A DNA stretch of 50,182 nt, from positions 1-50,182 of the forward strand of contig JAZDOG010000045.1 in NCBI GenBank assembly GCA_043798915.1, read 5' to 3'. The notes under the pieces were generated by a model that was not told the origin of the DNA, did no database searches, and saw nothing but the letters and a program-made list of their open reading frames with translations. This DNA comes from Pseudomonadota bacterium (lineage in GTDB: Bacteria; UBA10199; 2-02-FULL-44-16; JAAZCA01). Shown here piece by piece: positions 1 through 30,611 of the stretch. Every line of letters starts with the position of its first letter. Within the stretch, counting starts at the first letter, position 1. The translations under genes and the position numbers were made by a program.

Positions 1-1
1 T

Positions 2-34
2 CCGATCGAGCGCATACACGAAAAATATTATTAG
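2..34 (+). CDS. Possible 3' end of a gene entering from the left (…PIERIHEKYY*), product unknown
   Basis: Frame 2 is open from the window edge to TAG at 32-34. Only 10 codons are visible. Confidence 0.3.
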   Translation, partial: PIERIHEKYY

Positions 35-44
35 AACCTTGGCG

Positions 45-164
45 TATTCAGCCAGGGAGTCGTCTGTTGATGGACATAACTTCGGAGGGGGTAACCCCCT
101 CCCCACGCCTATCGGCGCGGTTCCCCTCCCCATGTCCTGCAACAGACGACTCCCTGGCTGAATA
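45..164. mobile_element. MITE-like non-autonomous element with long terminal inverted repeats
   Basis: 45-69 TATTCAGCCAGGGAGTCGTCTGTTG is the exact reverse complement of 140-164. The repeat extends to 33 bp (45-77/132-164) with 2 mismatches. Both outer ends are TA. Internal hairpin GGAGGGGG-TAA-CCCCCTCC at 84-102. No ORF. Confidence 0.65.
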
Positions 165-168
165 GGAA

Positions 169-777
169 TTATCGCAGCTTTTCTGCCACAAGTTCGTATC
201 GGCCCGGCTCATCTCTGTAATGAACGACTCGAAGGCCCGCGTCCTGCATCATGACAGTCATTTCCCTCTCATCGGGGAGCACGTCGTTCCTTACGGGTCC
301 AGAACAGCCCGCGTGGAATGCGTTGACCTCTTTGCGGCTGGACGCATGGGCAATGACGAGCCTGCGTCCAGTTTTCAACATCCTTTCAACGTTGGCAAGC
401 GCAGCTGGCTTGTCCGATAGATGAGGGAAACATGAAAAACAGATGATGGCGTCGAGCGATGAATCATCGAACGAGCTATTCTCCATAGTTTCGCATCGCA
501 CTTCTATTCTATGGTCGCGATATTTGTCCTGCAGGATATCCAGCATCTTTTGCGCCGGATCGATTGCCTTGATCCTGCCTGAGTCGCCCACCGCTTCGAG
601 GAGAGCGGGAAGCAAAATGCCTGTCCCGCATCCTGCATCAAGGACCGTTGCAGATCGTTTGATTCCGGAGAGCGAAATAATTGCCGAAAGATGGCTTGGC
701 GGCAACGATTCAGACATCTCGTTCCAATCGGCAGCGAGATTATTGAAAAAATCTATCTTAACATCTACATGTTTCAT
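169..777 (-). CDS. Class I SAM-dependent methyltransferase
   Basis: Motif I VLDAGCGTG, acidic AIDPA after beta2, and SLDAIICFSCFPH. The start at 777 overlaps the upstream stop (ATGA). Confidence 0.9.
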   Translation of the reverse strand: MKHVDVKIDFFNNLAADWNEMSESLPPSHLSAIISLSGIKRSATVLDAGCGTGILLPALLEAVGDSGRIKAIDPAQKMLDILQDKYRDHRIEVRCETMENSSFDDSSLDAIICFSCFPHLSDKPAALANVERMLKTGRRLVIAHASSRKEVNAFHAGCSGPVRNDVLPDEREMTVMMQDAGLRVVHYRDEPGRYELVAEKLR

Positions 778-1331
778 ACATCGGCCCTGCTGAGATAATC
801 CCCTATCTTCGACACCATCACAGGCAGCAGTAGCAACTGGGCTGCTATTCCGGGAAGGCCGACCAGAAAGAGATTCCTGATCAAAACCTGAGATGATGGC
901 GCGCTGCCAAACCCTGCGGCGAAAAACACTAGCGACACGGCGCGCCCGGCGAGCATCGCACAGACGAGCGCCGTGATAATCCTGGCATGGCGGTGATGAA
1001 CGAGCCATCCGGCAACAGCCGCGTACACAGCAAGCTCAGCCATCATTGGCAACAGCGCGCCGACAGGCGGCATCCCTGAAAGGGAAAAACTCACCAAGGG
1101 GCTCGCCAGCGCCGTGAGCACGCCACCTCGAAGCCCCATCACCATCGCCGCAAAGATGACCGCGAAATGCATGGGGAGAATGACCTGTCCTGCCAGCCCA
1201 AACTGATGGCAGAGATAGGGGGCCGCTACCGCAAATGTTGTGAAGGCAGCCAAAAACAGCAACCAACGCATACCGCTCAGCCGATACGGCATGACAGGTG
1301 CAAAACCCAACGTCCCGGCAATTGCGTTCAT
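774..1331 (-). CDS. ECF transporter S component (LPMH-type), substrate unknown
   Basis: About 185 aa with ~6 hydrophobic helices and GQVILPMHFAVIFAAMVMG…SPLVSFSLSGMPP. Strong RBS AAGGAGGA before the ATG at 1331. Confidence 0.8.
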   Translation of the reverse strand: MNAIAGTLGFAPVMPYRLSGMRWLLFLAAFTTFAVAAPYLCHQFGLAGQVILPMHFAVIFAAMVMGLRGGVLTALASPLVSFSLSGMPPVGALLPMMAELAVYAAVAGWLVHHRHARIITALVCAMLAGRAVSLVFFAAGFGSAPSSQVLIRNLFLVGLPGIAAQLLLLPVMVSKIGDYLSRADV

Positions 1332-1350
1332 ATATCCTCCTTTTGATATT

Positions 1351-1572
1351 CTACCTACAAAGAACTCTCCAGCGATATGCCGGATGTTCTGGTGTAAACT
1401 CGTCCTTGATCTCACACTGGCTGAACGGAGAGCCCGATCCATCGAGAGACCAATCGCGAAATCGAACAGCGTCCTCCCTGTTATTAAATCTATTTTCCTT
1501 AAAAGGACTCAGGGCAGATCCAAATAGATAATTTATTATACCGGGATATGGGTAAAATGCCGTGCCATTCAC
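1351..1572 (-). CDS. Small hypothetical protein (73 aa)
   Basis: GGAGG lies 5 nt before the GTG start, and the stop falls just upstream of the S-component RBS. No recognisable domain. Confidence 0.5.
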   Translation of the reverse strand: MNGTAFYPYPGIINYLFGSALSPFKENRFNNREDAVRFRDWSLDGSGSPFSQCEIKDEFTPEHPAYRWRVLCR

Positions 1573-1638
1573 AGGGGCCTCCGTTCCAAGTTTGAGACTG
1601 GACGCCTATCAAATCACGGACGCCATGGCAACGATAAA

Positions 1639-1665
1639 GTGGCACGAAATAGATAAACGTGCCAT
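1639..1665. promoter_or_regulatory. Putative NikR operator GTGGCAC-N13-GTGCCAT
   Basis: Inverted repeat TGGCACG/CGTGCCA around an AT-rich spacer, in the divergent intergenic region next to nikR. Confidence 0.65.
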
Positions 1666-1678
1666 TTCACATTATAGT
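1650..1678 (+). promoter_or_regulatory. Putative sigma70 promoter of nikR (TAGATA-17-TATAGT)
   Basis: -35 at 1650-1655 and -10 at 1673-1678 with a 17-bp spacer. It overlaps a minus-strand TATAAT (1671-1676). Confidence 0.4.
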
Positions 1679-1724
1679 CCTAGCTTGTTGCAATGCGGCT
1701 CTCTTTCATGTTAGGGGGGGCGCC

Positions 1725-2138
1725 ATGGACTCGCTTATTCGTTTTGGCGTTTCGCTCCCTGAGCGCTTGCTCAAAAAATTCGATCTTTTCTTAAGCTCCC
1801 ACGGATACGGAAACCGCTCCGAGGCAATCCGCGACATGATCCGCCAGCGGCTGCTCGATGAATCGTGGGATGTCGGCAAGAATGCCTGCGGCGTCATTTC
1901 CCTCGTCTACGATCACCACCAGCGAAATCTTTTAGACCGGCTGACTGATATTCAGCACGACGCCGGAGAGATCATCCTCTCCTCAACCCACATCCACATC
2001 GATCATCATCACTGCCTCGAGGTCATCATCGTCCGGGGGCCGGTAGGGCGCGTGAAAAAGCTCGCCGACCGCCTGATCGCCCTCAAGGGCGTCCTCCACG
2101 GTTCGTTCTCAAAGGCGCCCACCGGGTCGGAGTATTGA
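1725..2138 (+). CDS. nikR: Nickel-responsive transcriptional regulator NikR
   Basis: Ribbon-helix-helix N-terminus RFGVSL…NRSEAIRDMIR and metal site IQHD…THIHIDHHHCLEVI. Start moved to the ATG at 1725, after a G-rich RBS. Confidence 0.95.
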   Translation: MDSLIRFGVSLPERLLKKFDLFLSSHGYGNRSEAIRDMIRQRLLDESWDVGKNACGVISLVYDHHQRNLLDRLTDIQHDAGEIILSSTHIHIDHHHCLEVIIVRGPVGRVKKLADRLIALKGVLHGSFSKAPTGSEY

Positions 2139-2178
2139 TAGCGGTCAAACTTCGCTATTAAGAAAAGGGGGGAACCTT

Positions 2179-2982
2179 ATGGAACGCAGACCGGTGGTGG
2201 CAGGGCAGTTTTATCCCGGGAGCAGGTCGGCCCTGGAGGAAGAGGTCGAAAAGCTCCTGAATACCGGGGCCAAACCGAGAAAAGTCCTGGCGGCCATCGC
2301 GCCGCACGCGGGCTATGTCTACTCCGGCGCTGTAGCCGGAGCGGTCTTCGCAAGCGCGGAGGTGCCGAAGCGCTGCATCGTGCTCTCGCCCAACCACACT
2401 GGGTTAGGGACGCGCGCGGCCGTCTGGACGCGCGGGTCGTGGGGCATCCCCACCGGGACGATCGCCGTGGACGAACCGCTCGCGGGGGCCCTCATGAGGC
2501 GCTGCTCGGAACTCTCGGAGGATACCTCGGCGCATGCCGGCGAACACTCGCTTGAAGTCCTGCTCCCCTTCCTGCTCGCGAGGCAGCCGAAGCTCTCGAT
2601 CGTGCCCATCACGCTCTCGCACCTCAATGTATCGTCGTGCAAAAAGATCGGCGACGCTATTGCAGGCGCGATTCGCGAAGAGAAGGAAGACATACTCATC
2701 GTCGCCTCGACCGACATGAACCACTACGAAGAGCAGGAGCGCACGATGAAGAAAGACAGGATGGCGATAGAGCGCGTCCTGGCGCTGGATGCGGAGGGGC
2801 TCCTCACGACCTGCGGCGAGAACCGCATCTCGATGTGCGGCGTGGTGCCGACCGCAGTGGCCATCTATGCATGCAAGGAGCTCGGCGCCAAAAAGGCGAC
2901 CCTCATCAAGCACACGACCTCCGGCGAGGTCTCGGGCGACTTCAGCGCGGTAGTTGGATATGCGGGATTTGTGATCGAGTGA
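2179..2982 (+). CDS. amrB: AmmeMemoRadiSam system protein B (MEMO1 family)
   Basis: RRPVVAGQFYP, PHAGYVYSG, PNHTG, EHSLEV, STDMNHY, SMCG and VVGYAG motifs. Confidence 0.92.
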   Translation: MERRPVVAGQFYPGSRSALEEEVEKLLNTGAKPRKVLAAIAPHAGYVYSGAVAGAVFASAEVPKRCIVLSPNHTGLGTRAAVWTRGSWGIPTGTIAVDEPLAGALMRRCSELSEDTSAHAGEHSLEVLLPFLLARQPKLSIVPITLSHLNVSSCKKIGDAIAGAIREEKEDILIVASTDMNHYEEQERTMKKDRMAIERVLALDAEGLLTTCGENRISMCGVVPTAVAIYACKELGAKKATLIKHTTSGEVSGDFSAVVGYAGFVIE

Positions 2983-4005
2983 CTAAGACACTTCCTGCCA
3001 TGTGCCAAAGGTCATGGGCTCAGCCCCCTCGCCGCCGGTAAAGCCGGGCACCGTGTCTCCGGGTGAAGTAAAGGTCACGTTCGCGTCCGTGTTGCCGATG
3101 AGCGTGATGTCTTCCCCGGCAATCATTCCTCCAGTGACATCGACGTCCGAGTTTCCCGTCATCGTGAGGGTGGAGACCGTAAAGATATACCCCGAGATCG
3201 TCGAATCGGAGGTCCCGGTGAACGTCACCGAGCCCCCTGCGATGATCGCCGGGTTCGGCAACGTCGCGGTGATGTGGATGTTGGAATTGCTCCCGAAGCT
3301 CACGGAACCCAGGGTGGCAATGGTGCCGTTGAGCGTGACGTTCGTGGAAAAACCCACATCCCCGGTGATATAGTAGATGCCGCTGTACGTGCCTGAAGGG
3401 AAGGTGTAGCTGCCAGAGATCGTGGTATTGGCAACGCTCTGCCAGTACGACCATATCGGCTGTGGAACTGCCGCGTCCGGGTCGTTCTGATTTGTGGCGC
3501 CGTTTATCTCCAGCCCGCCGCCGGCAGTGACGGTCCCTTTGGCGGTGACATCGCCGTTTATTACGCCGGATGAGGAGCCGCCAGATGATATGTTGTTTCC
3601 GGAATAAAACGCGTCCGTGAAGGCGTCGGCCAGCCCTGACCCCTGCGTCAGCGACTGCTGTGCCGATCGCGTGATCCCGCCCACCGTGCCGTCGGACCGG
3701 ACGGTCACAGAGGTGCATGGGTCGGCGCAGGTGATCGTCGTGGTAAAACTCCCCGGGCCAAAAGTCTTGGTGACGCCGGTCTGCGTCGACCAATCGGCGA
3801 CGCCCGAGAGGGTCTCTGCGGTATAGGACACGCCGGCATTTGCAACGGATATTGCCTGCTGGGTGAGCTCTTCGTCCATGGCCGTCTGCGACGAGGTGGA
3901 GATGATGCTCACCGTCGCAACCCCTAAAATGGCGAAGACCACCATGACGAAGACGACCGTCAGGATGGCAAAACCCTCATTCCCCGCAAAAAATATCTTT
4001 TTCAT
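2983..4005 (-). CDS. PilX/MshP-like minor pilin with extended Gly/Thr-rich C-terminal domain
   Basis: Prepilin-like G|FAILTVVF lacking Glu5 (a PilX/GspK/MshP hallmark), plus QQAISVANAGV. Last gene of a four-pilin cluster. Confidence 0.75.
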   Translation of the reverse strand: MKKIFFAGNEGFAILTVVFVMVVFAILGVATVSIISTSSQTAMDEELTQQAISVANAGVSYTAETLSGVADWSTQTGVTKTFGPGSFTTTITCADPCTSVTVRSDGTVGGITRSAQQSLTQGSGLADAFTDAFYSGNNISSGGSSSGVINGDVTAKGTVTAGGGLEINGATNQNDPDAAVPQPIWSYWQSVANTTISGSYTFPSGTYSGIYYITGDVGFSTNVTLNGTIATLGSVSFGSNSNIHITATLPNPAIIAGGSVTFTGTSDSTISGYIFTVSTLTMTGNSDVDVTGGMIAGEDITLIGNTDANVTFTSPGDTVPGFTGGEGAEPMTFGTWQEVS

Positions 4006-4007
4006 AG

Positions 4008-4478
4008 TTAAACTCCGTTCTTGATCTGGGCCGCAGACTGGAGCCTGACCGTCTGCTGGCCGGCTGTGATCACGATCGTCACCCTCACCGTCCGGATGTC
4101 AGCCGCGGCAGCCGCGGCGGTCGCGTCCTTTTTGAGGTACTCAAAGGTGAGCGACTGCACGTTGCGCGCCAGCGCATCGGTGCCGCGCAGGAGGTCCGTC
4201 CCGGTGAGCGAGAAGTCGACCGCCTGGTCGTCGATGTCCACGAAGGTAAGATGGGTGGAGGTAAATACGGTGATATCCTCCGGCGATTTGATCCGCCCCG
4301 CCTCGAGGATCAGGCGCGTGGTCGCAAGCTCCGCCTCCGCCATGCCGCTGCGCCGCTCCATGATATGGACCCAGTTCTGGGCCGGCATCAGCAGAAAGAC
4401 CGCGACGAGCGAAACGACCGCTCCCGCCGTCATCCCGATGATCAGCTCCACCAATGTGAACCCTTGCGCCCTCTTCAT
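4008..4478 (-). CDS. Minor pilin, PilW/MshO/GspJ-like
   Basis: Class III signal peptide QG|FTLVEL, and LARNVQSLTFEY…VRVTIVI. Confidence 0.82.
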   Translation of the reverse strand: MKRAQGFTLVELIIGMTAGAVVSLVAVFLLMPAQNWVHIMERRSGMAEAELATTRLILEAGRIKSPEDITVFTSTHLTFVDIDDQAVDFSLTGTDLLRGTDALARNVQSLTFEYLKKDATAAAAAADIRTVRVTIVITAGQQTVRLQSAAQIKNGV

Positions 4479-4873
4479 AGATTCACCTTCAGATCATAGA
4501 CGTGGACAGCGCCGGCAAGGCCGGTATAAGTGACGCTCACGTCGACCTTCTTGAAATCTGTGGTCCCGGCCGCAATCGAATCCGGATCGGTCGAATCGGC
4601 ATAATTCACCGTCACGCTGTAGCTGTAGCCGCTGAAATTGCCTGTGAAAGGCGTGGTGACGACGTTCGCTATCGAATCGAAGTCATTCGCCATCACCTCG
4701 GCCAGCTTTCCCCGGGCAAGCATCACGGAGGTCGTCGAGACATCGAGCCGGATGTTGCCGATCGTCGTGTTCGAGATGACGAGCATGAGAGCCAGGAAAC
4801 AGGACGATATTATGACCACGGCGAGGATGGCCTCTATGATCGAGAAACCGCTCTTTCCGAGACGCGACCTCAT
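4475..4873 (-). CDS. Minor pilin, PilV/MshD/GspI-like
   Basis: SG|FSIIEAI and MLARGKLAEV. Start set at ATG 4873 because the upstream in-frame extension translates a repeat element. Confidence 0.8.
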   Translation of the reverse strand: MRSRLGKSGFSIIEAILAVVIISSCFLALMLVISNTTIGNIRLDVSTTSVMLARGKLAEVMANDFDSIANVVTTPFTGNFSGYSYSVTVNYADSTDPDSIAAGTTDFKKVDVSVTYTGLAGAVHVYDLKVNL

Positions 4874-4883
4874 ATGGCATCCC

Positions 4884-4985
4884 TCCCCCCTCCTTTGTAA
4901 GGAGGGGCTGGGGGAGGTAGATCCTCGATGAATCTGTTTCAGATATCTACCCCACCCTAACCCTCCCCTTACAAAGGGGAGGGGA
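4884..4985. repeat. REP-like palindrome doublet, copy 1
   Basis: Hairpin CCCCTCCTT-TGT-AAGGAGGGG followed by an inverted unit CCCTCCCCTT-ACA-AAGGGGAGGG. A near-identical copy lies at 7071-7164. Confidence 0.85.
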
Positions 4986-4995
4986 TTTAATTTTC

Positions 4996-5532
4996 CTAAT
5001 TCCACGGCGTGTCGACCCTGCCCGTGGACTTGCTGATACTGATCGTCTTCGTCTTGGTACCGGCCACAATTGAGAGAGATCCGTCCAGCGCAATGGCCGA
5101 ACCGTTCTTGTCGGTGTAGGGCTCGCCCATCGGGCTGAACTCCACCTTCGTCCCGCCGTCGATGTTGACGGCGCTGATCACCGCATCATAACTGGTTTTG
5201 AGATTTACCACGAGCGTTGCCCCGCGGCTCGACGGGTCCGTCACGTTCGTGTCTGTGGTGCCATCGGTCGAATAGACACTATACTGGTTCACGGGATCGG
5301 CCGAGAACGAGATCCCGTACCATCCGTTGTGGCTCATGGCCTGCTGCTGGGCAAACCTGATGTCGTGCACCACCTTCGCGGAGGCGGAGCTTAGGCGAAA
5401 GGTGTAGACCGCACTCCAGATGGAGACCGCCGCAAAGATCGCAAGCGCTGATACGATCAAAAAGGTGAGGATGACCTCGAGCAGCGTGAAGCCGCTCTCC
5501 CCCCCGAGGCGATATGTGCGCAAAATATCCAT
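4996..5532 (-). CDS. Minor pilin, FimT/GspH/MshC-like
   Basis: SG|FTLLEV, DIRFAQQQAMS, VEFSPMGEP and C-terminal ISKSTGRV, all typical of FimT/GspH. Confidence 0.85.
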   Translation of the reverse strand: MDILRTYRLGGESGFTLLEVILTFLIVSALAIFAAVSIWSAVYTFRLSSASAKVVHDIRFAQQQAMSHNGWYGISFSADPVNQYSVYSTDGTTDTNVTDPSSRGATLVVNLKTSYDAVISAVNIDGGTKVEFSPMGEPYTDKNGSAIALDGSLSIVAGTKTKTISISKSTGRVDTPWN

Positions 5533-5602
5533 ATATTCAAACTGGTTACAAAAACACCCCCCCTTGAATTAAAGGAAATTCTTAATTCCCCCAGTATAAG
5601 TA

Positions 5603-5631
5603 ATTTTACACCTCAACGGGTTGTGTGTCCA
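5603..5631 (-). promoter_or_regulatory. Putative sigma70 promoter of the minor-pilin operon (TGGACA-17-TAAAAT)
   Basis: 5/6 match to both consensus hexamers with an exact 17-bp spacer, about 70 bp upstream of the start. Confidence 0.55.
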
Positions 5632-5688
5632 ATGCCTCCTTTTTGTTGTCCTTGACGCTTGGGGTGTCATCCAATAGTCAGACATACC

Positions 5689-7086
5689 ATGAAACCACGC
5701 GTCAGATTCGCACCATCTCCCACCGGGAGCCTCCACATCGGCGGGGCGCGCACTGCCCTCTTCAACTGGCTCTTCGCGCGCCACAGCGGAGGCACGTTCA
5801 TCCTGCGCGTAGAGGACACCGACCTCGAGCGCTCCACGAAGGAATTCGAGAAGTCGATCCTCGACGGGATGAAGTGGCTCGGGATGGATTGGGACGAGGG
5901 ACCTTATTATCAGACACAGAGGATGGACCTCTACAAGGAGCATGTGGGCAAGCTCCTGGGCAGCGGGAAGGCTTATCGGTGCAGCTGCACGCAGGAGGAG
6001 ATCGAGGCGATGCGCCAGAAGGCGATGGCCGTCGGCGGCAAGCCAAAATATGACGGCACCTGCAGGGGCGGTCAGAAGCATCCTGACAAACCTTCCGTCG
6101 TGAGGTTCAAGGCCCCCACGGACGGCGCAACGGAGTTTCACGATATCTGCCGTGGAACGGTACGGACCGAGAATGCGGAGCTCGACGACCTCATCATCGC
6201 CCGCAGCGATGGGTCCCCGACTTACAACTTCACGGTCGTCGTCGACGACGTCACCATGGGCATCACGCACGTGATCCGGGGCGATGACCACATCAACAAC
6301 ACGCCGCGGCAGGTCCTGCTCTATGAGGCGCTGGGCTTCCCGGCGCCGGAGTTCGCGCACCTGCCGATGATCCACGGACCGGACAAGAAGAAGCTCTCGA
6401 AGCGTCACGGCGCGACATCGGTGATCGAATACGAGAAGATGGGTTACCTGCCGGATGCGATGGTCAACTATCTGGCCAGGCTCGGCTGGGCGCACGGCGA
6501 TCAGGAGATATTCACGCGCGAGGAGCTGATCGCGAAATTCGATATGCCTGCGGTGGGCAGCGCGGCGTCGATATTCGATGCCGAGAAACTCGGCTGGGTA
6601 AACAGCCAGCACCTGCTGAAGCTCCCGAACGAAACCCTCGTCGAGTTGACGCGCCCATTCTGGAGCGAGCTGGGGATTTCGATCGACGACGCAGCCTATG
6701 CCGCGCGCGCGATGGCGACGGTCCGCGTGCGCGGCGACACGCTCAAGAAGCTCGCCGAGCTCTCGGCCTTTTATTTCCGGGATGCGATCGAGATCGACCC
6801 CAAGGCAGCCGCGAAGTGGCTCGGCGGCGAGTACGCAGCGCGACTCAAGGAGCTTCACACAAAGCTCGCCTCGGAGGAGGAGTTCAGCGAGGCGTCGCTC
6901 TCGAAGATATTCGACGCCGAAATCGCCAAGGCAGGCATCAAGATGACTGAGATCGCTCAGCCCGTGAGGGTCGCGCTCACCGGGGGCACGGCGAGCCCGG
7001 GGCTCTTCGAGGTGATGGCGGTCTTGGGGAAGGATCGCGTCTTAAAGAGGCTGGGTGCTGTCTTATTAAATCCCCCTCCTTTGTAA
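5689..7086 (+). CDS. gltX: Glutamate--tRNA ligase
   Basis: RFAPSPTG, HIGG, RVEDTD, IRGDDH and KKLSKR motifs. Confidence 0.97.
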   Translation: MKPRVRFAPSPTGSLHIGGARTALFNWLFARHSGGTFILRVEDTDLERSTKEFEKSILDGMKWLGMDWDEGPYYQTQRMDLYKEHVGKLLGSGKAYRCSCTQEEIEAMRQKAMAVGGKPKYDGTCRGGQKHPDKPSVVRFKAPTDGATEFHDICRGTVRTENAELDDLIIARSDGSPTYNFTVVVDDVTMGITHVIRGDDHINNTPRQVLLYEALGFPAPEFAHLPMIHGPDKKKLSKRHGATSVIEYEKMGYLPDAMVNYLARLGWAHGDQEIFTREELIAKFDMPAVGSAASIFDAEKLGWVNSQHLLKLPNETLVELTRPFWSELGISIDDAAYAARAMATVRVRGDTLKKLAELSAFYFRDAIEIDPKAAAKWLGGEYAARLKELHTKLASEEEFSEASLSKIFDAEIAKAGIKMTEIAQPVRVALTGGTASPGLFEVMAVLGKDRVLKRLGAVLLNPPPL

Positions 7087-29366: not shown

Positions 29367-30611
29367 CTAGAGGTTTCTTGCTGCATCCAGCGCCTTCATC
29401 CGAGCCAAGTATTCGAGGAAGAACACCAACAAGATTGCGCCTAAGAGAGAGGCTATGAATGCCGTCCAGCAGATATGGGCGCGCTTAGGTTTGAATTTTT
29501 TTACAGGTGGCACCGCCTTGTCGATTACTTGAAACGCCAAGTCTTCCTTTGACTCCTCAATCTTGGCCATCTCATATTGTGACGTTAGCAAAGCATTGAC
29601 CTTTGCCAGCAACTCGCGCCTGAGCATGAGATAAGTGAGATAAACCTGTTGGGGCACATCCTTCACCGTTTTTGCCACCGTGATCTTTTTCTCGAGATCA
29701 GACTTTTGGGCCAACAGGCCATCCAACTCCCCTTCGTGACCCCCAATCAATGGCACGTCACCGGAAACGCCACTTCCATTTGTCTCGGTTTCGGGGTCAT
29801 TGCTGGCCAAGAACGCGCCACCAGTGACTGACGATCCACCAGGCGTGCCACTCGTCACGTGTGACGTGCCACGGTTGATGGGGACATCCACCTTCGCTTC
29901 GGCGCTGGAGATACGGCCACCCTTGTAGAACTGATTGATCTCCTTGCCAGCCTCCAGAAGTTCCTGCTTATTCTGTTCCAACTGACCTTCGACAAACAGG
30001 CGATTGCGCTTGGCCATCGTAAAGGCATTGTCATTGATGAACTTCTGAAGTTCGTCCAGATAGGCGTTAACGACGCGAGCGGCAAGCTCCGGCGCATTGA
30101 ATTCACCGCTTATCTTAATCGACTTGTTCTTCTTGTCATCCATAATAGCAACATGACCCTTCATGATCCCGACCGCAGTCTCCATATTCGGCTGTTTTTT
30201 TGGATCGTCACTCTTCCACCTGCCTGTTTCCTTGTCCCACGAATTTTCGAATAATACCGGCATGAGATTTTCTCGGCCGATAACGTTCTCGGTGAGTGTG
30301 CGGCTATTGAGGAAAGTCACAAATTTCGACGTTTCATCCGCACCGCCCGGAAGACTCACGCCTGCCAGTAATGCAAGACTGCCAAACTGCGACGAAAGCG
30401 AGGATGCCCCTCCACCGCCCCTGGCTGGCACCGGGATGATCAGCGCCTCCGCCCTGTAGGATTTCGGGAGGTGGAGGCTCCAGACGACAGCGAGCACCGA
30501 CGCCACAGCGACGATCACAGTGATCATTCGGCGGCGTTTCTTGATGATGCGCCAATAGTCGAGGAAGTTGATCTCGCCGTCGTGACTCGTGATTGGCACA
30601 TTGTCTAACAT
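29367..30611 (-). CDS. Polysaccharide co-polymerase / chain-length determinant (Wzz/GNVR type)
   Basis: EINFLDYWRII, N-terminal TM, PELAARVVNAY, coiled coils, VIDKAVPP…KPKR and a C-terminal TM. No kinase domain. Confidence 0.88.
   Translation of the reverse strand: MLDNVPITSHDGEINFLDYWRIIKKRRRMITVIVAVASVLAVVWSLHLPKSYRAEALIIPVPARGGGGASSLSSQFGSLALLAGVSLPGGADETSKFVTFLNSRTLTENVIGRENLMPVLFENSWDKETGRWKSDDPKKQPNMETAVGIMKGHVAIMDDKKNKSIKISGEFNAPELAARVVNAYLDELQKFINDNAFTMAKRNRLFVEGQLEQNKQELLEAGKEINQFYKGGRISSAEAKVDVPINRGTSHVTSGTPGGSSVTGGAFLASNDPETETNGSGVSGDVPLIGGHEGELDGLLAQKSDLEKKITVAKTVKDVPQQVYLTYLMLRRELLAKVNALLTSQYEMAKIEESKEDLAFQVIDKAVPPVKKFKPKRAHICWTAFIASLLGAILLVFFLEYLARMKALDAARNL

Follow-up and report, generated by a model that had tools for sequence, protein, structure and literature searches.

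The three leftward genes beside nikR in the DNA analysed here (the window, a stretch of 50,182 nt) may constitute a NikR-repressed cassette for the uptake of nickel or a nickel chelate, in which a membrane protein with the S-component fold works without an ECF motor and a methyltransferase traps the cargo or releases the metal. We advance this explanation tentatively, as a serious possibility that falls just short of being probable. It builds on an earlier note that had proposed an uncharacterised importer at this locus. The solitary fold, the link to NikR and the coupled methyltransferase speak for that proposal, whereas the occurrence of the LPMH motif outside the nickel-linked clade and the existence of cassettes in genomes without NikR speak against it. 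The carrier-methyltransferase pairing, a second genus in which nikR is adjacent and the shared NikR-type boxes are new here.

Organization of the nikR-divergent locus

The three leftward genes were confirmed to be divergent from a true nikR, and every element of the proposed layout was recovered:

169–777, minus strand: class I SAM methyltransferase, 202 aa, with an intact motif I (DAGCGTG) and matches to Methyltransf_25/11
774–1331, minus strand: membrane protein with a predicted S-component fold (hereafter the carrier), 185 aa, assigned by predicted fold and not by Pfam
1351–1572, minus strand: conserved small protein, 73 aa, GTG start, no fold assigned, two invariant Cys
1639–1665, no strand: putative NikR-type operator GTGGCAC-N13-GTGCCAT, with 7-bp inverted half-sites and an A+T-rich spacer
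1671–1676, minus strand: TATAAT hexamer, a candidate −10 element of the leftward operon by pattern only
1725–2138, plus strand: nikR, encoding a nickel-responsive ribbon-helix-helix repressor, 137 aa

Together, the three genes of the cassette occupy 1.4 kb. On the minus strand, the TGA stop codon of the carrier gene (774–776) overlaps the ATG of the methyltransferase gene (775–777) in an ATGA. GGAGG is found 4 nt upstream of the carrier ATG and also ahead of the GTG start codon of the small-protein gene. The TATAAT hexamer lies 5 nt upstream of the NikR-type box, and a consensus scan placed a promoter-like TAGATA-17-TATAGT on the plus strand at 1650–1678, with its −35 element within the box. 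A Memo-like gene is located downstream of nikR.

The reported absence of ECF A/T and NikMNQO genes from the window was borne out, as none of the 36 large ORFs matched ABC_tran, CbiQ or CbiM. An Rfam search of positions 1–3000 (E ≤ 1) for a riboswitch upstream of the carrier gene returned only a chance snoRNA match and no cobalamin riboswitch, and gathering-threshold Rfam scans of 26 loci identified tRNAs only. Additionally, no vitamin regulator was found at any of the loci scanned and no btuR-like neighbour near the window cassette.

The carrier is predicted to have an S-component fold

The AlphaFold model of the carrier reached a pLDDT of 89.1 and a pTM of 0.86. Searched against the PDB with Foldseek, it was most similar to the ECF S-components RibU, FolT, PanT, BioY and ThiT (probability 1.0; TM 0.5–0.67; best E 1.4e-3, with none ≤ 0.001), BioY (4dve) being at rank 11, and the Atlas model of the carrier matched S-component clusters with TM values of 0.77–0.85. 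These models assign the carrier a predicted six-helix ECF S-component fold. Its classification as an S-component by HMM was sustained only in part: the fold agreed, whereas PF12822 scored 26.1 bits, below the cut-off of 30.7. Among the homologues, PF12822 scored above this cut-off in L009 (34.3) and L012 (54.7) and below it in L008 (29.0) and L025 (30.5). The carrier is the sole PF12822-like gene in its own genome. At the sequence level, the carrier profile matched no PDB chain, and no NCBIfam model scored over its cut-off.

Close homologues of the carrier (n = 19; 41–75% identity) share, among others, the invariant residues C41, H42, L52, P53, H55, M87, P88, P89, E99, Y103, R130 and Q165. The LPMH motif described earlier is present at residues 52–55, with L52, P53 and H55 invariant and M54 conserved as Met in 17 of the 19. 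Cys41, next to His42, marks the clade, being Cys in all 19 close homologues and in none of 24 others. Loop 3 reads GMPP and contains no Cys. The Ala-x-x-x-Ala motif of S-component helix 1 docks on EcfT. In helix 1 of the window carrier, the corresponding motif is A28-x-x-x-T32; both Ala residues occur in 4 of the 19 close homologues, and a small-xxx-Ala motif occurs in all 24 distant relatives.

The methyltransferase and the small protein

The coupling of the methyltransferase to the carrier, proposed from the window, extends to 10 of the 11 assessable loci, which come from several lineages; the two genes are adjacent there, and often the stop codon of one overlaps the start codon of the other. 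Because the partner is conserved and translationally coupled, a methyltransferase modifying the imported cargo is an idea that fits. We are not aware of any methyltransferase that takes part in nickel uptake, and a literature search for such a role found none.

The methyltransferase matched Methyltransf_25 (E 1e-19) and Methyltransf_11 (E 2e-18) in Pfam. Its best NCBIfam match was the DVU_1556 family (NF045667) with 57.6 bits, far under the equivalog cut-off of 155, which places it outside that family; a Zixibacteria homologue scored 75.9 bits against the same model and cut-off. A literature search on DVU1556 gave no match. The structural model (pLDDT 94.5) matched generic small-molecule and other class I methyltransferases in Foldseek, and only 3dh0 and 5wp4 were matched by sequence in the PDB. 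The residues F10, F11, A15, W18, D47, G49, G51, T52, G53, D73, D109, F114, F117, P118, H119, H144, S147, F154, H155, L167 and P168 are invariant in the alignment (A3). An identity as ArsM was considered and rejected: ArsM-type NCBIfam models scored 38.8–46 bits against cut-offs of 263–575, and the conserved Cys triad is missing, with only C113 near-invariant.

Methyltransferase orthologues also occur without the carrier, in G003 and G004. Such carrier-less orthologues are also found in metal contexts: in G003, FeoB and a DtxR-FeoA fusion are encoded divergently from the methyltransferase, and a NicO-like gene lies close by.

Judged from sequence comparison, the small ORF at 1351–1572 is a real gene. 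Its homologues follow the methyltransferase gene in L023 and L024 (39–47% identity; tblastn E 1e-11 and 9e-14, respectively), in ORFs that overlap the methyltransferase stop codon. An exhaustive profile search of 1.84 billion proteins yielded seven representatives of 70–82 aa, and A35, C53, E58 and C72 are invariant in their alignment (A5). No Pfam or NCBIfam match was obtained, a word-index search was empty, and the Atlas held no usable match. The small protein was not found in five other carrier-bearing genomes, and we regard it as an optional third member of the cassette.

NikR and its predicted operator

The nikR product matched NikR_C (E 4.5e-33, 113.7 bits) and the NCBIfam NikR equivalog NF003381 (168 bits; cut-off 105), while its RHH_1 domain scored 19.7 bits, slightly below 20.5. 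It is the sole NikR_C match in its own genome. The C-terminal stretch THIHIDHHHC contains His and Cys residues, which we take to be the equivalents of the E. coli NikR nickel ligands.

The palindrome between nikR and the cassette proved to be more than a chance repeat, being the only inverted site of its kind in its own genome. It resembles in architecture (7-N13-7) the delta-proteobacterial NikR signal, GTGTTAC-[N13/14]-GTAACAC, and the site list given for that signal (Table 4 of PMC545781) contains a half-site of the form GTGccAC as well as reversed sites. Based on this, 119 kb of loci were scanned with a model allowing half-sites GTGTTAC or GTGCCAC in either orientation, N13/14 and ≤ 2 mismatches. 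The half-site GTGCCAC was picked partly for its likeness to the window's own site; the matches in L007 and L006 are independent of this choice. Seven matches were obtained:

Window, 1639–1665: 1 mismatch
L007, 6166–6192: 1 mismatch; in the gap from the nikR stop codon to the carrier start codon, where it overlaps a promoter-like TTGACA-18-TAGTAA
L006 (genome G040), 739–765: 2 mismatches; 27 nt ahead of the carrier ATG
G056 and G089, other genomes of the phylum: perfect boxes preceding nikR-nikM(N)QO
G004: 16 nt ahead of the gene for a TonB-dependent receptor adjoining nikR
L052: probably a chance match

The same scan found no NikR-type box in L008, L009, L012 or L022–L026. Wherever NikR and the cassette occur in one genome, which is the case in three, a box lies just upstream of the cassette. 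In the window's own genome, the model found 2 sites per 2.34 Mb at ≤ 1 mismatch, the other one being a direct repeat within an ORF, and 29 sites per 2.34 Mb at ≤ 2 mismatches; from these background rates, about 1e-4 and 2e-3 sites, respectively, are expected per 160-bp upstream region. For the canonical GTGTTAC-N13/14-GTAACAC, the best site in that genome had 2 mismatches, and none looked meaningful. TGGCA/TGCCA repeats upstream of nikR in L007 were also considered as an operator and set aside in favour of the 7-N13-7 box, as their spacing is unlike that of the window site.

These sequence patterns provide good support for control of the cassette by NikR, presumably by repression. A NikR site has also been predicted before an Fe-only hydrogenase operon, so NikR targets may be non-importers (PMC545781). 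A literature search on NikR in Geobacter uraniireducens returned nothing useful.

Distribution and nickel context

The association of the homologues with nikR, anticipated in the earlier note, recurs in a second genus, where nikR adjoins the pair. In G008, the gene order is nikR-carrier-methyltransferase-DUF364 on one strand. In G040, nikR is located on a different contig from the cassette. Among the 93 genomes of the phylum, NikR was detected in 6, the carrier in 5 and both in 3 (hypergeometric P = 0.0015, for genomes that are related and not independent). Two of the genomes lacking NikR have the cassette (G026) or the carrier alone, without the methyltransferase (G005), and the pair in L025/L027 is flanked by unrelated genes.

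The claim that the S-component is solitary was upheld as far as EcfT/CbiQ, both covered by the PF02361 search, which gave no match in the window's own genome (2.34 Mb, 97.2% complete). This genome (G000) is one of four among the five carrier genomes of the phylum that had no PF02361 match, the others being G005, G008 and G026; the fifth, G040, has a match, as does the Zixibacteria genome. In addition to the cassette, G040 contains CbiM/CbiQ. In none of 13 genomes of family f1 does the carrier (G000, G005 and G008) occur together with CbiM (G003, G007, G009, G010 and G012). The slot after nikR is taken by NikM(N)QO in G056 and G089.

The window's own genome had no PF01891 (CbiM), NiCoT or HupE/UreJ match. 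It encodes three SBP_bac_5 solute-binding proteins, which could be part of a NikABCDE-type system, and the absence of other nickel importers is therefore uncertain. It also encodes a [NiFe]-hydrogenase large subunit and LarC (412 bits). A [NiFe] hydrogenase was found in 4 of the 5 carrier genomes versus 22 of the 88 others (P = 0.02); across the phylum (n = 93), this enzyme exceeded the family cut-off in 26 genomes, and CbiM was present in 14.

Clostridial relatives and the nature of the cargo

The nearest relatives of the carrier outside the clade are clostridial (about 29–37% identity in the alignment). They share H42, LPMH, GMPP, E99 and R130, lack Cys41 and keep the small-xxx-Ala motif. 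Since P53, H55, GMPP, E99 and R130 are equally kept in these proteins, nickel ligation by Met-His, as the earlier note had suggested, is unproven; LPMH is not peculiar to the nickel-linked clade. The clostridial carrier operons contain TM1506/DUF1893, an aldo-keto reductase with an Fe-S domain, an NmlR-like MerR regulator and DUF362, and no metal gene was found near the relatives at the scanned loci. A gene for a soluble protein overlaps the carrier stop codon in 5 of the 7 clostridial loci scanned, a count that leaves out L021. [quoted passage not shown] In the clostridial operons, the partner is TM1506 and the regulators are NmlR-like, whereas the window clade has the methyltransferase and NikR.

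Because the pocket residues except Cys41 are common to these non-metal operons, the carrier pocket may bind an organic molecule. The cargo might then be, in place of the metal, a micronutrient or cofactor precursor of organic nature, such as a pyridine or niacin-type compound, which the methyltransferase would trap. NikR control would reflect nickel only indirectly, for instance through a nickel-sparing response or the need to supply the nickel-pincer cofactor, which derives from nicotinate. We consider this unlikely. In its favour, organic cofactors are, to our knowledge, the cargo of those S-components that have been characterised outside the CbiM/NikM family, LarC is encoded in the window's own genome, and the relative in Peptococcus simiae (L020) directly follows a gene for a nickel-pincer-dependent isomerase (NF052515, 462 bits; cut-off 400). 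Two homologues (P0010 and P0015) are labelled 'niacin transporter' by JGI, which would point to the niacin S-component NiaX, but this name is automatic. Against this reading, the loci scanned lack riboswitches and vitamin regulators, it is hard to see why a cell well supplied with nickel should shut off precursor import, related genomes have nikR-nikMNQO in the corresponding place, and the gain of Cys41 is specific to the clade.

It is quite unlikely that the link to NikR is fortuitous, with NikR acting only on its own gene and on the Memo-like gene downstream, and the pair being unrelated to nickel. The non-metal neighbourhoods of the pair in L025/L027 and L006 and the presence of the pair in G026 and of the carrier alone in G005, both without NikR, would fit such a reading, and both nikR-adjacent cases belong to family f1 and could share ancestry. 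However, the gene order differs between them (divergent in the window, co-directional in G008), and the box lies directly ahead of the carrier gene in L007 and in L006; nikR of G040 is on another contig. The chance expectation of 1e-4 to 2e-3 per upstream region also argues against it.

The membrane protein might instead be an anchor or ligand sensor for a methyltransferase acting on a lipid, quinone or protein, and not a transporter, which we regard as very unlikely. The S-component fold also serves receptors (PMC11109136). The methyltransferase is structurally like UbiE, UbiG, Coq5 and phosphatidylethanolamine N-methyltransferase, and a close structural neighbour, 6f5z, is a Trm112-activated methyltransferase, offering a parallel for a small partner protein. 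Against this reading, each protein occurs without the other (the carrier in G005; the methyltransferase in G003 and G004), the conserved polar residues would cluster at the substrate site if general S-component topology applies, and control by NikR would be left without a reason. As weak evidence in the same direction, no fused carrier-enzyme protein was found among 8000 candidates in a search for longer proteins.

A detoxification pair, in which a toxic soft metal, a metalloid or an electrophile would be methylated and the product would leave through the S-fold protein, is highly improbable: the ArsM-type similarity (45–46 bits here and 58–66 bits in the Zixibacteria homologue, all far below cut-off; ArsM at rank 37 of the structural matches), the ArsP_1 permease divergent from nikR in L007, the marginal MerC matches of the carrier (E 0.015) and the NmlR-like stress regulators beside the clostridial relatives would suit it, but the scores are generic to class I methyltransferases, the Cys triad is missing, S-components are importers in every characterised case that we know of, and the NikR box over the L007 promoter implies that high nickel turns the operon off, where detoxification would demand the reverse.

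A proposed model for nickel uptake by the cassette

Under the favoured explanation, nickel uptake, the genes for the small protein, the carrier and the methyltransferase would form one operon that is repressed by NikR when nickel is plentiful and serves nickel acquisition. Working without an ECF motor, the carrier would bind its cargo at the outer face and then topple, so that the cargo enters the cell by facilitated diffusion. A complex of nickel with a ligand is a more likely cargo than Ni(II) itself. Residues expected to line the pocket are Cys41-His42, Met54-His55, those of the Met87-Pro-Pro loop, Glu99 and Arg130; placement of the conserved residues at the outer face follows general S-component topology. 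Through the overlapping stop and start codons, the methyltransferase would be made in step with the carrier, and cytoplasmic methylation of the imported ligand or cargo might cause trapping or metal release, making uptake one-way. The 73-aa protein may be an optional helper of the methyltransferase. The gene layout, the predicted fold, the lack of an EcfT match, the conserved pairing and the NikR-type boxes of three genomes are observed; repression by NikR, which way the carrier transports, what it carries, what the methyltransferase acts on and the outer-face position of the conserved residues are inferred.

A bolder form of the model, which we hold to be doubtful, is a new importer class in which a motor-less S-component carries a nickel chelate and a dedicated methyltransferase methylates the chelator inside, setting the metal free and making uptake irreversible (group translocation by methylation). 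The DUF364 enzyme that would extend the cassette in some genomes could build the chelator. The only DUF364 enzyme characterised so far forms an azetidine amino acid from a SAM derivative by cyclisation (PMC12930334).

Among known systems, BtuM of Thiobacillus denitrificans is a solitary vitamin B12 S-component co-localised with btuR, for which metabolic trapping was proposed (PMC6072759). Its likeness to the cassette lies in the S-component fold, hosts without an ECF module and an adjoining gene for a cytoplasmic enzyme, which modifies the cargo in the case of BtuR and is proposed to do so here. Both BtuM and the carrier have a Cys near the binding site, but C41 of the carrier ends helix 1, whereas the Cys of BtuM is located in loop 3. 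The partner enzyme is a methyltransferase instead of an adenosyltransferase, and a NikR box takes the place of the B12 riboswitch. The carrier shows neither the loop-3 Cys nor the btuB/btuR/riboswitch context of BtuM, and BtuM was absent among the carrier's Foldseek matches listed. Solitary BioY proteins have also been reported to transport without an ECF module (PMC6072759, PMC11109136); unlike the cassette, BioY carries biotin and has neither a coupled enzyme gene nor a metal regulator.

With NikMNQO/CbiMNQO, the cassette shares NikR with a 7-N13/14-7 box, and nikR-nikM(N)QO occupies the position of the G008 cassette. In contrast, the carrier has no PF01891 match, no N-terminal Met-His (its N-terminus reads MNAIAG) and no NikN/PDGLE domain, and its genome has no Q match; it is not a NikM/CbiM protein.

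In many anaerobes that have [NiFe] hydrogenases, no nickel importer can be recognised. If the model is correct, a NikR-controlled, motor-less S-component would enlarge the small set of nickel uptake systems and, next to BioY and BtuM, would be just the third kind of S-component to act alone. The coupling to TM1506 in the clostridial relatives suggests that a carrier with a trapping enzyme is a general design, and the coupling to a methyltransferase would provide a testable answer to how solitary S-components achieve net uptake.

Gene organization at the left end of the window

Window and contig share their left end, where three genes lie on the minus strand and nikR runs in the opposite direction.

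Genes at the left end of the window
169-777, minus strand: methyltransferase, 202 aa; its ATG overlaps the TGA of the carrier gene (ATGA at 777-774)
774-1331, minus strand: membrane protein (the proposed carrier, called the carrier below), 185 aa; GGAGG 4 nt upstream of the ATG
1351-1572, minus strand: small ORF, 73 aa; GTG start with GGAGG upstream
1725-2138, plus strand: nikR
2179-2982, plus strand: AmmeMemoRadiSam system protein B/Memo gene (309 bits), starting 40 bp past nikR

The small ORF and nikR are separated by 152 bp of A+T-rich sequence containing the inverted repeat GTGGCAC-N13-GTGCCAT at 1639-1665, and an Rfam search of this region returned no family match. The AmmeMemoRadiSam system protein B gene may be co-transcribed with nikR. 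In another genome of the phylum, G056, the gene immediately 5' of nikR is one for a radical SAM protein (locus L053, 3705-4736).

Just 3' of the methyltransferase stop codon is a 33-nt inverted repeat (45-77 and 132-164, 94% complementary, 54-nt loop), one arm of which shares a 20-nt core with the beginning of contig C8 (position 78). The repeat could be a terminator or an element that recurs where contigs end. Further into the window, 2983-6858 holds a run of five minus-strand ORFs without a Pfam match. Several ORFs at 4008-5532 have pilin-type N-termini (GFTLVELI, GFSIIEAI or GFTLLEV), and secretin, PilN and PilM genes adjoin; the run therefore probably encodes components of a type IV pilus or pseudopilins.

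A solitary protein with the predicted S-component fold

Despite a Pfam ECF_trnsprt score below the cut-off (26.1 versus 30.7 bits), the carrier is clearly predicted to have the ECF S-component fold. The model, built from a 43-sequence alignment, reached a pLDDT of 89 and a pTM of 0.86. A sequence search of PDB chains gave no match; the best structural matches in the PDB were the ECF S-components RibU, FolT, PanT, BioY and ThiT, and the Atlas model of the carrier matched S-component clusters with TM values of 0.77-0.85.

The family is small: 5.8 billion clusters yielded 19 homologues with identities of 41-75%, and the next relatives, clostridial S-components, align at about 29-37% identity. Residues invariant in the 19 close homologues include C41, H42, L52, P53, H55, M87, P88, P89, E99, Y103, R130 and Q165. 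From S-component topology, we assume that the invariant residues fall in the substrate-binding region of such proteins: helix 1 at its end, loops 1 and 3, and the outer half of each of helices 4-6. Cys41 was present in all 19 close homologues versus none of the 24 distant relatives.

The earlier note had described a solitary S-component, with no ECF T or CbiM gene in the window, and both points held at the genome level. In its own genome (2.34 Mb, 97.2% complete), the carrier is the sole PF12822-like sequence, and no match to PF02361 (EcfT/CbiQ) or PF01891 (CbiM) was found. EcfT/CbiQ was likewise absent from three of the four other carrier genomes of the phylum (G005, G008 and G026) and present in G040. 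The small-xxx-Ala motif of helix 1 serves EcfT docking. This motif was found in 24/24 distant relatives, and Ala-xxx-Ala in 4/19 close homologues.

The carrier and methyltransferase genes form a conserved pair

Loci were taken from related genomes, species-representative genomes and metagenomes, and adjacency was judged on 11 distinct loci with enough sequence (L006 duplicates L011, and L009 duplicates L010; L025 and L027 cover a common region; L028 is cut off). The methyltransferase gene lies beside the carrier gene in all of these but one, or 10 of 11; L008 (G005) has the carrier alone. The ATGA junction occurs in the window, L009, L022, L026 and L012; in the last, from Zixibacteria, the order of the pair is reversed and the overlap kept. 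The two genes also overlap in L007, and the gap at other loci is 0-7 nt. Methyltransferase orthologues without a carrier were found in G003 (251 bits) and G004 (149 bits); the core genes are therefore separable.

The small protein was also found in L023 and L024, there after the methyltransferase and overlapping its stop codon. Its family has seven representatives among 1.84 billion proteins, with C53, E58 and C72 invariant. Because it was not found in the five other carrier-bearing genomes, the small protein counts as an optional addition to a core of carrier and methyltransferase.

The methyltransferase has an intact SAM motif I with an acidic post-I residue and the family signature FFxxxAxxW, FxxFPH, IxHxxS, FH and LP. 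Its NCBIfam matches were all far under the cut-off (top, the DVU_1556 family, 57.6 versus 155). The model (pLDDT 94.5) matched class I methyltransferases of many kinds and indicated no substrate; the matches were an Aquifex protein of unknown function, a Trm112-activated archaeal enzyme, MitM, Coq5, UbiG and CypM.

NikR and NikR-type boxes

Few genomes of this single-class phylum have NikR, which occurs in 6 of 93 species genomes (G000, the window's own, and G004, G008, G040, G056 and G089), and the carrier occurs in five (G000, G005, G008, G026 and G040). Both were found together in three genomes (P = 0.0015, a value for related genomes that are not independent). The association that the earlier note drew from the window, where nikR is divergent from the cassette, reappeared in G008, whose order on one strand is nikR-carrier-methyltransferase-DUF364. 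In G040, nikR lies among unrelated genes and the cassette on a separate short contig. In G056 and G089, the neighbourhood is nikR-nikM(N)-nikQ(-nikO), with a perfect GTGTTAC-N14-GTAACAC in front of it. These perfect boxes are identical to the delta-proteobacterial NikR signal, GTGTTAC-[N13/14]-GTAACAC, given in PMC545781, where the listed sites also include GTGccAC-[N13]-GTAACAC in Desulfuromonas and reversed half-sites in Desulfotalea.

A scan of 119 kb of fetched loci for GTGTTAC or GTGCCAC half-sites, in either orientation and with up to two mismatches, gave seven matches; the GTGCCAC half-site was chosen partly for its likeness to the window's own site, and the L007 and L006 matches are independent of this choice.

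NikR-type boxes in the fetched loci
Window, 1639-1665: one mismatch
L007, 6166-6192: coding strand GTGCCAT-N13-GTAACAC, one mismatch; after the stop codon of nikR and before the carrier gene, overlapping TTGACA-18-TAGTAA
L006 (G040), 739-765: GTAGCAC-N13-GTGGCAC, two mismatches; carrier ATG 27 nt downstream
G056 and G089: two perfect boxes, before nikMNQO
L055 (G004): ATAACAC-N13-GTGACAC, 16 nt before a receptor gene
L052: one match, probably chance

The background in the own genome (2.34 Mb) was 2 sites with at most one mismatch and 29 with at most two, corresponding to 1e-4 to 2e-3 boxes expected by chance per 160-bp upstream region. The second one-mismatch site, GTGCCAC-N14-GTGCCAC at 29845-29872 of the window, is a direct repeat within a Wzz-like ORF (29367-30611) and is probably a chance occurrence. 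Since the boxes stand in three independent placements, the sequences make NikR control of the cassette likely.

The NikR beta-strand reads RFGVSLP in G000, G008 and G004 and RFS(L/I)SMP in G056 and G089, a difference that may explain the variant half-site. In G004, nikR and the gene for a TonB-dependent receptor point towards each other (L055, 1-2455), and the latter protein is a candidate outer-membrane receptor for nickel under NikR control.

Nickel demand and supply

Among the genes of the own genome are those for a [NiFe]-hydrogenase large subunit and for LarC (412 bits). Searches of this genome for NiCoT, HupE/UreJ, CbiM and DUF364 gave no match; its three SBP_bac_5 proteins could belong to a NikABCDE-type system. 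Within family f1 (13 genomes), to which G000, G005 and G008 belong, the carrier was found in three genomes, CbiM in five and both in none. G040 has both, and the 500 bp upstream of its CbiM gene showed no box. [NiFe] hydrogenase scored over the cut-off in 4/5 carrier genomes versus 22/88 others.

L007 also encodes an ABC-3 metal transporter, an ArsP_1 permease and a DUF364/DUF4213 protein, and the genes upstream in L009 are DUF364, DUF134 and two NifX-like genes. DUF364 genes are part of a molybdate-uptake operon in Methanococcus (bioRxiv 10.1101/2024.03.05.583561), and the first characterised member forms an azetidine amino acid by cyclising a methylated SAM (PMC12930334). In G003 (L057, 4294-11185), the carrier-less methyltransferase orthologue and, across a gap of 75 bp, a DtxR-FeoA fusion gene with feoB are transcribed divergently, and a 447-aa NicO/DsbD_2-like membrane protein is encoded nearby. 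In L025/L027, the pair is flanked by a YchF GTPase gene and a HEPN/nucleotidyltransferase pair.

Distant clostridial relatives

The clostridial relatives are a reason for caution. All pocket residues of the carrier but Cys41 are common to them; on alignment evidence, either the pocket would bind a common organic scaffold or the shared residues would be structural. An overlapping TM1506/DUF1893 gene directly follows the S-component gene in five of seven clostridial loci scanned. The operon is conserved (about 7850-10400 in L013, L015, L018 and L029; about 4100-6100 in L019) and further comprises an NmlR-like MerR regulator together with either a DUF362 protein or an aldo-keto reductase carrying an Fe-S domain. 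The Atlas also contains fused S-component-DUF1893 proteins (186 members). In Peptococcus simiae (L020, 6666-8495), an S-component relative lies 19 bp beyond a gene for a nickel-pincer-cofactor-dependent isomerase (group 22, 462 bits), with an altronate/galactarate-dehydratase-like gene upstream and a LysR regulator gene downstream.

Proposed function of the cassette

Nickel or a nickel complex is a plausible cargo. Of the readings considered, a NikR-repressed uptake cassette has the most support; taken as a whole, with such a cargo, it is put forward tentatively, at slightly less than even chances. At low nickel, the operon would be transcribed; the motor-less S-component would take up the cargo outside, topple and release it inside; and the methyltransferase, produced in step with the carrier, would modify either the cargo or the ligand of the cargo and thereby confine flux to the inward direction. 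The same logic is proposed for BtuM and BtuR in PMC6072759. Within the literature collection searched, we found no description of an S-component-methyltransferase system or of a NikR-linked S-component. Rather than forming a new category, the cassette combines two known kinds, a solitary S-component transporter and a member of a NikR regulon.
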